Shown: in pieces, positions 10,107 through 42,221 of the stretch | How the letters are laid out: every line of letters begins with the position of its first letter | How positions within the stretch are numbered: position 1 is the stretch's first letter | Sequence record: OZ346160.1 | Source: a phage | Strand: one strand, 5' to 3' | DNA: 51,691 nt | Translations under genes and position numbers: made by a program | The notes under the pieces: generated by a model | The model's input: only the letters and a program-made list of their open reading frames with translations | What the model was told of the DNA's origin: nothing | The model's database searches: none

Positions 10107-10145
10107 TTCCTGTAAAATCAATCTATCAAATAAATCAATTCCACT

Positions 10146-27680: not shown

Positions 27681-27687
27681 CTTATCA

Positions 27688-28164
27688 TTAGCTATTCGTG
27701 CTGTTATCACCTTTGTAGAATCGTCCGCCTGGTTCGTAGTCTGAATTTTTGACTACGCGCAACATTTCGTATTTGTCGCAACGGGTAGTAAGAGGCTTGC
27801 CGTTAGAATCAAACCGCAGATCTGGACGACAAAACGAGGCGCGGTATCCTTTGCATCCATTATATTTGTAGTCGTTATGCACCTTTTGTGCTCCAGCGGC
27901 TGAAATCATACCACGCTTTCGCCACTGGTTAACGACTTGCTGAGATACGCGCAGACGTCGAGCCATAGCAGGAACACCGCCGTAATACTCGATCAGAATG
28001 TCAAGGCGAGATTTTAGGCTTGCTTTTACCTCATCTCGCAGGATAAGAAATCCGGTTCGGTGTTTTCGTGGCTTTTTGTCTTTACCTCGTCGCGTTCCGT
28101 TGTTACCGTTAATAGTGCGCTTGTCGATCTCACCCGTAGATACTGCAATTCGTGCATCTTTCAT
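27688..28164 (-). CDS. HTH DNA-binding protein (putative transcriptional regulator)
   Basis: 158 aa; HTH-like segment GGVPAMARRLRVSQQVVNQWRKRG; basic N-terminus; divergent from helicase gene. Confidence 0.45.
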   Translation of the reverse strand: MKDARIAVSTGEIDKRTINGNNGTRRGKDKKPRKHRTGFLILRDEVKASLKSRLDILIEYYGGVPAMARRLRVSQQVVNQWRKRGMISAAGAQKVHNDYKYNGCKGYRASFCRPDLRFDSNGKPLTTRCDKYEMLRVVKNSDYEPGGRFYKGDNSTNS

Positions 28165-30668: not shown

Positions 30669-30708
30669 CACTTTTTGTTAAAACTGGCGCGATGGATTGC
30701 GCCATAAT
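30664..30708 (+). promoter_or_regulatory. cassette copy upstream of Dam methylase
   Basis: AATAGCACTTTTTGTTAAAAC overlapping upstream stop TAG; hairpin GGCGC..GCGCC; CATAAT at 30703..30708. Confidence 0.55.
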
Positions 30709-37086: not shown

Positions 37087-37114
37087 TCGTTAGCTTCTCC
37101 TTTGTGGGCCGTAA

Positions 37115-39987: not shown

Positions 39988-40032
39988 AATATACCAATCA
40001 GAGGCGCATCGGTTTTAACAAAAAGTGCTATT
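39988..40032 (-). promoter_or_regulatory. cassette copy
   Basis: Consensus motif; hairpin CGATGCGC..GCGCATCG with TATATT in loop. Confidence 0.5.
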
Positions 40033-41789: not shown

Positions 41790-41834
41790 ACTATACCAGG
41801 TTATCCCGATCAGCTTTTAACAAAAAGTGCTATT
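41790..41834 (-). promoter_or_regulatory. cassette copy
   Basis: Consensus motif overlapping stop; hairpin GGGATAAC..GTTATCCC; TATAGT at 40-45. Confidence 0.55.
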
Positions 41835-42176: not shown

Positions 42177-42221
42177 AATGTACCCGATCAGGTGGCCTGA
42201 GTTTTAACAAAAAGTGCTATT
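42177..42221 (-). promoter_or_regulatory. cassette copy (first of - strand array)
   Basis: Consensus motif; TACATT at 40-45. Confidence 0.5.

Follow-up and report, generated by a model that had tools for sequence, protein, structure and literature searches.

The 51,691 bp phage sequence OZ346160.1, referred to in its whole length as the window, encodes a 158 amino acid protein between 27,688 bp and 28,164 bp on the minus strand, which we have designated the regulator. Judged by sequence comparison, the regulator is the best available candidate for a factor acting on the promoter box of the T1-like phages, a 20-nucleotide (nt) motif repeated across the window. Regulator and box appear to have the same phyletic range, and the regulator gene itself is predicted to be transcribed from the box-less arm of a symmetric bidirectional promoter, the -10 of which is shared with the box-carrying promoter of a divergent helicase gene. 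That the regulator acts at the box, with an activator favoured over a repressor, is a tentative reading to which we would give a little less than an even chance; a repressor that shuts off the box promoters is its less likely sub-variant.

Neither the repeat nor the gene is itself new, a point missed by the first-pass annotation of the window. More than 800 phage records already carry the annotation 'putative transcriptional regulator' for the gene (PHROG 2856). The repeat was described by DeGiulio et al. 2024 as a 21-nt direct repeat of phage TLS that is also present in T1, Rtp and Rogue1 (PMC11447400); stoperator, enhancer site and UP element were proposed as its roles and its function was listed as an open question. 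The TLS repeat (aaATAGCACnnnTTGnTAAAA) is the motif of the window cassettes, and was found to be oriented with transcription and to lie approximately 76 nt upstream of start codons (PMC11447400). That report names no binding factor and does not include the 18-nt spacing to the -10, the shared -10, the box at the regulator stop codon or the cassette hairpins described below. New here are the link between regulator and repeat, the switch at the shared -10, the stop-codon box and the contrast between an invariant N-terminal arm and a variable helix 3.

The box and its promoter module

The box motif (ATAGCACnnnTTGnTAAAA) was present in 22 copies in the window at ≤2 mismatches, compared to an expectation of 0.25, and none of 100 shuffles reached 22. 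Approximately 19 cassettes were rigidly organised and consisted of the 20-nt box, 18 nt of spacer (17 nt in two of the 19), a -10 hexamer and a C/A-rich leader (CATCGAAACGAA). The hexamers were CATAAT, TATAAT, TATAGT, TATATT or TACATT, matching the -10 at 4–6 of 6 positions, and G was favoured at -14/-13. The leader begins at the predicted +1, with the Shine-Dalgarno (SD) sequence and ATG approximately 30–36 nt past the -10. The sequence of the spacer was unconserved although its length was fixed, and box and -10 are therefore read as one unit, which makes the cassettes promoters. With the -10 placed at -12 to -7, the box occupies -50 to -31. It is asymmetric and its most conserved part is ATAGCAC. 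The cassettes belong to a class of promoters that keep a sigma70 -10 and lack a -35 at the proper spacing, with a conserved box a set distance upstream.

Several known promoter elements were considered for the box and rejected. The TTGnTA of the box resembles a -35 hexamer; its distance from the -10 is 22 bp, 5 bp more than for a normal -35, and no -10-like hexamer was found 17 bp downstream of it, so it is not an ordinary -35. The sigma28 consensus is TAAA-N15-GCCGATAA, and a sigma28 promoter was rejected after comparison of the cassette with it by eye. An extended -10 is not a general feature of the cassettes, as TGn was found in only about five of the 19 copies. The box as a whole is not an UP element either, since its core ATAGCAC contains G/C and its extent from -50 to -31 includes TTG; only the central T-tract is UP-like. 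A gathering-threshold scan of the whole window against Rfam revealed no known RNA family.

A strong hairpin was carried by 13 of 18 well-formed cassettes, either within the 18-nt spacer and ending at the -10 or enclosing the -10 in its loop. The mean free energy (dG) of the cassette hairpins was -11.4 kcal/mol compared to -6.1 kcal/mol in random windows (p about 1e-4, Mann-Whitney test), and the stems were unrelated in sequence. Examples with the stem in the spacer are found at 30,685–30,702 bp, 31,756–31,773 bp, 37,795–37,812 bp (minus strand) and 43,567–43,584 bp, and with the stem around the -10 at 37,100–37,138 bp, 39,975–40,011 bp and 41,780–41,813 bp (all minus strand), 45,023–45,055 bp, 46,448–46,480 bp and 49,060–49,095 bp. 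These hairpins could terminate or stabilise upstream transcripts, in which case each cassette would be a terminator-promoter module.

Two further sequence features were observed in the cassettes. The C/A-rich, G-poor leader takes the form CATCGAAACGAAC / CAACGAAACAAC at the predicted start of most of them (for example 43,591–43,603 bp and 40,455–40,470 bp, the latter on the minus strand) and is kept in Vibrio phage Vc1; a role as initial-transcribed-sequence or translation-enhancer element is possible. Additionally, the word CCAATCAG / CTGATTGG is strongly enriched, with 20 copies in Vc1 (L082) and 11–12 per 20 kb in TLS-like loci (L046, L059), and is found in the window at 40,000–40,008 bp (minus strand). 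Copies often stand directly ahead of the -10 in cassette spacers, or directly ahead of the SD sequence in leaders.

Some boxes stand in other settings. Three point away from a gene and have their 5′-end (…GTGCTAT on the gene strand) adjoining its SD sequence, at 10,144–10,163 bp (minus strand), 26,614–26,633 bp (plus strand) and 28,176–28,195 bp (plus strand). The genes concerned encode the tape-measure chaperone (ATG at 10,178 bp), a tail fibre (true start ATG at ~26,605 bp, MAIYRQ) and the regulator. The boxes at 10,144 bp and 26,614 bp have a poor or missing -10 and lead straight into terminators. These boxes could be protein roadblocks, decoys or RNA-level elements. A sigma70-like promoter, TTGACG-16-TATCAT, was also found between 6389 bp and 6416 bp (plus strand), 41 nt upstream of the major capsid ATG. 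Its spacer is a reversed box (6394–6413 bp), the GTGCTAT end of which gives an extended -10 (TGcTATCAT).

The regulator gene and the bidirectional promoter

A 2 kb stretch around the regulator open reading frame (ORF) showed ~99% identity to several Escherichia phages, tiwna and vB_Eco_Sip among them (Drexlerviridae, Tempevirinae, Warwickvirus), which identifies the window as the complete genome of a T1-like lytic siphophage, permuted relative to the deposited records. The ORF itself gave a full-length match to the profile of PHROG 2856 (E = 1.6e-72; amino acids 4–144 on profile positions 2–142 of 165), and it corresponds to tiwna gp48 and TLS gp57. The tiwna counterpart is the sole regulator annotated in that phage. 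These Drexlerviridae orthologues share 52–100% identity and match in synteny, promoter and box layout, with no difference in kind, and their designation as regulators derives from domain annotation only.

The regulator ORF starts with ATG, and its SD sequence GAGGTG, 5 nt upstream (28,170–28,175 bp, minus strand), directly adjoins the 5′-end of a box. This box (ATAGCATTTTTTGTTAAAAC; 28,176–28,195 bp, plus strand) has one mismatch to the consensus and faces the SF2 helicase gene (28,252–30,249 bp, plus strand), the first gene of the divergent, box-driven operon. The first-pass annotation had placed a cassette copy in the intergenic region that separates the two divergent genes; this was borne out, as the gap is 87 bp and holds one box copy. 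The -10 of the helicase promoter, TATTAT (28,214–28,219 bp, plus strand), begins 18 nt past the box. It lies within the sequence TATTATA (28,214–28,220 bp), which on the minus strand reads TATAAT (28,220–28,215 bp) and provides the -10 of the regulator promoter. The -35 hexamer of the latter, TTTAAA (28,238–28,243 bp, minus strand), is separated from it by 17 nt. The helicase-facing box thus occupies approximately -50 to -31 of the helicase promoter and approximately +14 to +33 of the regulator's own predicted transcript, in its 5′ leader.

The regulator promoter is box-less and of sigma70 type, TTTAAA-17-TATAAT in the window and TTGACT-17-TATCAT in TLS, where the orthologous promoter is P57. 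Box-less sigma70-like intergenic promoters are few in the window and one of them drives the regulator ORF; similarly, only three intergenic sigma70-like promoters were found in TLS and P57 is one of these. An orthologue of another TLS promoter, P01, was looked for between 42,221 bp and 42,436 bp and no convincing candidate was found. The predicted transcription start sites (TSSs) of the regulator and helicase promoters, taken from the -10 positions, lie near 28,208 bp (minus strand) and 28,226 bp (plus strand) and are ~18 bp apart, the geometry of a symmetric bidirectional promoter, and the two -10 sequences overlap in every group of homologues defined by helix 3. Among bidirectional promoters of E. 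coli, a shared -10 with TSSs ~18 bp apart has been described as the most frequent geometry, and at such promoters activation of one arm leads to repression of the other by polymerase competition (PMC12825309). The E. coli PacrA/acrR promoter with MarA/SoxS likewise has one pseudo-symmetric -10, with a regulator on one arm and an operon with an activator site on the other (PMC12825309). The phage arrangement differs from the E. coli examples in that it belongs to a lytic phage and is kept across a whole virus family, and in that its TSSs are predicted.

A second, degenerate box (ACAGCACGAATAGCTAATGA; 27,685–27,704 bp, minus strand) overlaps the last five codons and the stop codon of the regulator and encodes …STNS*. 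A box is at this position in almost all loci; the TLS-type version (ATAGCACTGATTGCTAAAA) encodes …STDC*, and the orthologous element of TLS is DR10. In the window and related loci L041–L062 the regulator stop codon TAA is part of the TAAAA of this box, which belongs to the presumptive primase promoter. The overlap of the second box with the final codons and stop accounts for the odd conserved C-termini …STNS* and …STDC*. Downstream of it, between 27,646 bp and 27,681 bp (minus strand), is a hairpin (stem GCCCAGC/GCTGGGC plus extensions; 27,674–27,680 bp and 27,652–27,658 bp) followed by a U-run (27,646–27,651 bp), with a dG of -26 kcal/mol (z = -2.9). This terminator or attenuator also contains the presumptive core of the primase promoter, as a -10-like TAATAT (27,661–27,666 bp) is found in the hairpin loop, 18 nt past the degenerate box, with the primase SD sequence and ATG next. 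The same hairpin is annotated as 'terminator' in phage vB_Eco_Sip and is orthologous to TLS T57; its dG is between -17 and -32 in most related loci and -14.6 in Vc1. A hairpin attenuator before the primase had been proposed by the first-pass annotation. The hairpin was found, with its U-run; it is not a stand-alone attenuator, belonging instead to a degenerate cassette with the box at 27,685–27,704 bp.

The DNA primase gene (26,703–27,632 bp) lies downstream of the regulator on the same strand. A mechanical ORF (26,703–27,710 bp) would place its start at GTG 27,710; this was rejected, as homologues, the tiwna annotation and the SD sequence GAGG (27,639–27,642 bp) point to ATG 27,632, which gives a primase of 309 amino acids. 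The primase and regulator genes therefore do not overlap. The order primase, regulator, helicase was strictly kept in every locus examined, the most divergent ones included.

Domain organisation of the regulator

The helix-turn-helix (HTH) segment and basic N-terminus attributed to the protein beforehand were both recovered. Amino acids 44–101 (27,862–28,035 bp, minus strand) form an all-alpha Cro-fold HTH domain. Matches to Pfam fell just under or below the gathering scores: amino acids 55–90 matched PF15943 (YdaS_toxin) at 28.7 bits (cut-off 30) and PF14549 (P22_Cro) at 19.9 bits (cut-off 30.2), and many close homologues carry precomputed matches to these two families. A phmmer search of PDB returned two Xylella prophage Cro proteins over amino acids 53–92. 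The N-terminal 40 amino acids contain 12 K/R and 4 D/E. Within them, codons 13–34 (28,063–28,128 bp, minus strand) encode a basic arm, xDKRxxNGNNGTRRGxDxxxRx, that was invariant in the alignment and was left unstructured by the predicted model, with a predicted local distance difference test (pLDDT) score of ~60. A third region, the C-terminal block GYRASFCRPDLxFDxNGK..C (codons 106–130; 27,775–27,849 bp, minus strand), is conserved and family-specific, and a fold search with it gave no match outside the family.

Conservation was measured in an alignment of 31 diverse family members. The invariant arm residues were D14, R16, N19, G20, N21, N22, R26, D29 and R33, and the most divergent arm-bearing members (P0105, P0107, P0108) retained DKRKxNGNNGTxRGxDxxxR. 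Helix 3 of the HTH (S-QQVVNQWRKR, codons 74–84; 27,913–27,945 bp, minus strand) was hypervariable and is followed by the conserved R84-G-M-I-S88. Mean column entropy was 0.61 bits for the arm versus 1.98 bits for helix 3. The usual base-contacting positions were the most variable in the protein, with 15 residue types at position 75 and 12 at position 79. In this alignment the invariant residues sit in the N-terminal arm and the C-terminal block, and not in the HTH.

The central domain shares its all-alpha Cro fold with P22 Cro, Xfaso-1 Cro and the YdaS family (PF14549, PF15943; PDB 1rzs, 3bd1, 5w8y, 8c7k). Proteins of the Cro/YdaS type are single-domain proteins of 60–80 amino acids from temperate phages, and act as dimeric repressors on symmetric operators. 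The regulator differs from them in its length of 158 amino acids, with arm and C-terminal block added to the domain, in its restriction to a strictly lytic phage family, in the invariance of the arm and in its unconserved helix 3. Armless Cro/YdaS-like relatives of 80–100 amino acids occur elsewhere.

Conservation of the layout and phyletic range

The layout was compared across 80 related IMG/VR loci, the whole Vc1 genome and two contigs that encode very distant homologues. The latter were reached by a seeded homologue search and contig look-up. The box consensus was checked with de novo k-mers and direct inspection. The box next to the SD sequence, the shared -10 and the second box at the stop codon were retained by 73 distinct loci as well as by Vc1 and the two very distant relatives. 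In most of the 73 loci the 5′-end of the helicase-facing box was 10–15 nt from the regulator ATG, the exceptions being probable mis-assignments of the start codon. Box, 18-nt spacing and leader were identical in every helix 3 group, Vc1 and the distant contigs included. Helix 3 reads DVCRLTNAY in Vc1 versus SQQVVNQW in the window, with the box unchanged, and no co-variation between helix 3 and box was detected across the 80 IMG/VR loci, Vc1 and the two distant Logan contigs. This lack of co-variation argues that helix 3 does not read the box base-specifically. The N-terminal arm and the box are both invariant across the family, a co-invariance that would be compatible with the arm touching the box, or touching a host partner that is itself conserved, for example RNA polymerase. 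If the regulator reads the box, the conserved contact would then be the arm and not helix 3.

A palindrome, AAATGGCATTT, was found in the spacer of the regulator promoter in the window, in locus L006 and in TLS. It is the only palindrome in the gap and was considered as the family's operator for a Cro dimer; this was rejected because it is absent from the other helix 3 groups.

Searching with tblastn revealed the regulator in 850 phage records, all of them T1-like, with Escherichia, Klebsiella, Shigella, Salmonella, Citrobacter, Enterobacter, Pantoea, Erwinia and Vibrio as the hosts of the matching phages. When 1.84 billion representative proteins were searched exhaustively with a profile, only ~14–20 full-length clusters (50% identity) were returned, and those for which the genomic context was examined were in T1-like settings. 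The remaining ~100 profile matches were armless, Cro/YdaS-like proteins of 80–100 amino acids that matched in the central domain only. The pattern box-N19-ATAAT was found in 118 stretches among 2.9 million IMG/VR viral contigs, nearly all of these contigs being ~44–53 kb in length with a few shorter fragments, and many were also found via the protein. The same pattern gave 17 scattered single matches in 596 Gb of bacterial genomes, with none in the Enterobacteriaceae among them. By these searches the cassette is specific to the T1-like phage family and does not represent a host type of promoter or regulon.

The regulator as candidate factor for the box

A phage-encoded reader of a family-wide box should be a core gene, which leaves the regulator as the only recognisable DNA binder. 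Among the non-structural ORFs shared as far as Vc1, its HTH was the only recognisable DNA-binding domain; when 20 core ORFs were scanned with Pfam and PHROG, no other DNA-binding assignment was obtained, and no counterpart of the 'GntR-like' gp59 of Vc1 was found in the window. The first-pass description of the protein as the clearest dedicated DNA-binding protein of the genome therefore holds for the core non-structural ORFs that were scanned. Its further suggestion, that the protein reads the repeated motif, gains from the Cro fold, the core status, the phyletic range and the interlocked promoters, and loses from the hypervariable helix 3 and the asymmetric box.

A number of points weigh against a role of the regulator at the box. 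In a specific HTH reader of an invariant site the residues that contact bases should be retained, and helix 3 is hypervariable though the box is invariant. Proteins of the Cro type typically bind symmetric sites as dimers, and the box is asymmetric. Phyletic co-occurrence applies equally to every family-specific gene, and ~15 small non-structural core ORFs of unassigned function, conserved out to Vc1, remain as alternative trans-acting factors; moreover, the scan for DNA-binding domains was directed at the core ORFs. Most of the small genes presumed to act in host takeover are box-driven, and a need for an activator would delay them, which is unusual in a lytic phage. The literature searched gave no binding, TSS or timing data for T1-like phages.

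The mechanism that would best explain the layout is as follows. Host sigma70 holoenzyme would make the regulator early from the box-less arm, and the primase by reading past the attenuating hairpin. The regulator would then work at the boxes (-50 to -31), most likely by recruiting sigma70 holoenzyme to promoters where the -10 is good and a usable -35 is missing. The invariant arm, perhaps together with the C-terminal block, would supply conserved contacts to the box and/or RNA polymerase while the Cro domain docks generally on DNA. Once the helicase arm is switched on, the regulator's own arm would be turned down by polymerase competition, giving a self-limiting switch. A stricter form of this proposal makes the regulator a new type of promoter-specificity factor, in which the invariant disordered arm (DKRxxNGNNGTRRGxDxxxR) on the Cro fold, and not the recognition helix, makes the conserved contacts and redirects sigma70 holoenzyme to a family-wide set of promoters lacking a -35, each with a 20-bp asymmetric box in which the TTG is shifted upstream by 5 bp; we regard it as rather unlikely in this full form.

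Mor and C of phage Mu, and MotA/AsiA of T4, are activators of phage middle and late promoters that lack a -35. If the mechanism above holds, the logic would be the same, namely a small phage DNA-binding protein that host polymerase produces early, and a conserved box in place of the -35 or upstream of it, at promoters retaining a sigma70 -10. The systems differ in that Mor/C sites are dyads whereas the box is asymmetric, that the box is centred near -40 compared to -30 for the MotA box, and that no AsiA-like co-factor was identified here. No similarity of the regulator to Mor/C or MotA was detected in sequence or fold.

In place of a phage factor, host RNA polymerase alone may read the box, as an UP-like T-tract with a displaced TTG that makes strong early promoters; the regulator would then be only a local Cro-like protein that tunes the primase/helicase switch or binds phage-specific operators. 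We consider this doubtful, yet of some weight. The T-tract of the box, at approximately -43 to -39, falls at the position of the proximal UP subsite, TTGnTA is -35-like and in one copy is exactly TTGACA, and the box promoters drive small and presumably the earliest genes. An UP element is also among the options listed by the TLS authors (PMC11447400). On the other side, the G/C in the ATAGCAC core is not UP-like and the 22 bp between TTGnTA and the -10 are outside the sigma70 range. The composite is absent from host genomes, and native promoters of this type are therefore not available to host polymerase. A hypervariable helix 3 would suit a variable, phage-specific operator such as the AAATGGCATTT palindrome in the promoter spacer of the window, L006 and TLS, but the palindrome is not kept across helix 3 groups. 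Host polymerase acting alone would also leave unexplained why the N-terminal arm is the most conserved part of the protein and why the gene forms part of the family-wide core with its synteny fixed.

The strict synteny with primase and helicase, and the co-transcription of the regulator with the primase through the attenuating hairpin, would suit a replication factor, either a DNA-binding adaptor or an origin-binding protein that works with the two enzymes and contacts a replication partner through its arm. Neither an origin nor an initiator is known for the T1-like phages (PMC11447400), which leaves room for such a protein. We nevertheless think it improbable, as no iterons or origin-like repeats were found besides the promoter boxes, the fold matches transcriptional Cro proteins, and gene order by itself says little in a compact phage genome. 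The arm might instead bind RNA or RNA polymerase, so that the regulator would be an antiterminator or processivity factor at the cassette hairpins. Lambdoid N proteins have arginine-rich motifs, which the basic, invariant and predicted disordered arm resembles; the cassette hairpins are significant, some have a U-rich tract after them and one lies directly downstream of the regulator ORF. Against this, stems and loops vary in sequence between copies, so there is no common RNA site, most cassette hairpins have no U-run, and the regulator showed no similarity to the N, Q or Nun families; an antiterminator seems to us the least probable of these roles.

T1 is a classical coliphage, and T1-like phages (Drexlerviridae) occur in abundance and find wide use both in therapy and in research on defence systems. 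The analysis recasts the TLS 21-nt repeat as a defined promoter module that is interlocked with one family-wide protein of DNA-binding fold, and it points to the arm, as opposed to helix 3, as the part to mutate. If the regulator is a promoter-specificity factor, the whole early/middle programme of the Drexlerviridae and the question of the T1/TLS repeat would run through this protein and its self-limiting bidirectional switch. If it does not read the box, host polymerase would recognise a promoter geometry not employed in host genomes.

Additional coding sequences

Two small ORFs of the window were observed in addition. The first, between 40,299 bp and 40,457 bp (minus strand), encodes an acidic protein of 50–52 amino acids (MVTLITWEHENSQPEAREFETVAACYNLAKNGGFYKAQIVNEFGVVDYEF; Pfam DUF7170, PHROG 4653) that showed 85% identity to its Vc1 counterpart, compared to 75% for the major capsid protein. 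This protein is a candidate for binding to some conserved machine of the host. The other, an ORF of 100 amino acids (MINMNLFTAKDHEN…) between 41,834 bp and 42,136 bp (minus strand), lies between two cassettes, downstream of the box promoter at 42,201–42,220 bp and with its stop codon adjoining the box at 41,814–41,833 bp. As it falls in a 674 bp unannotated stretch of the tiwna RefSeq record, it is probably a missed gene.

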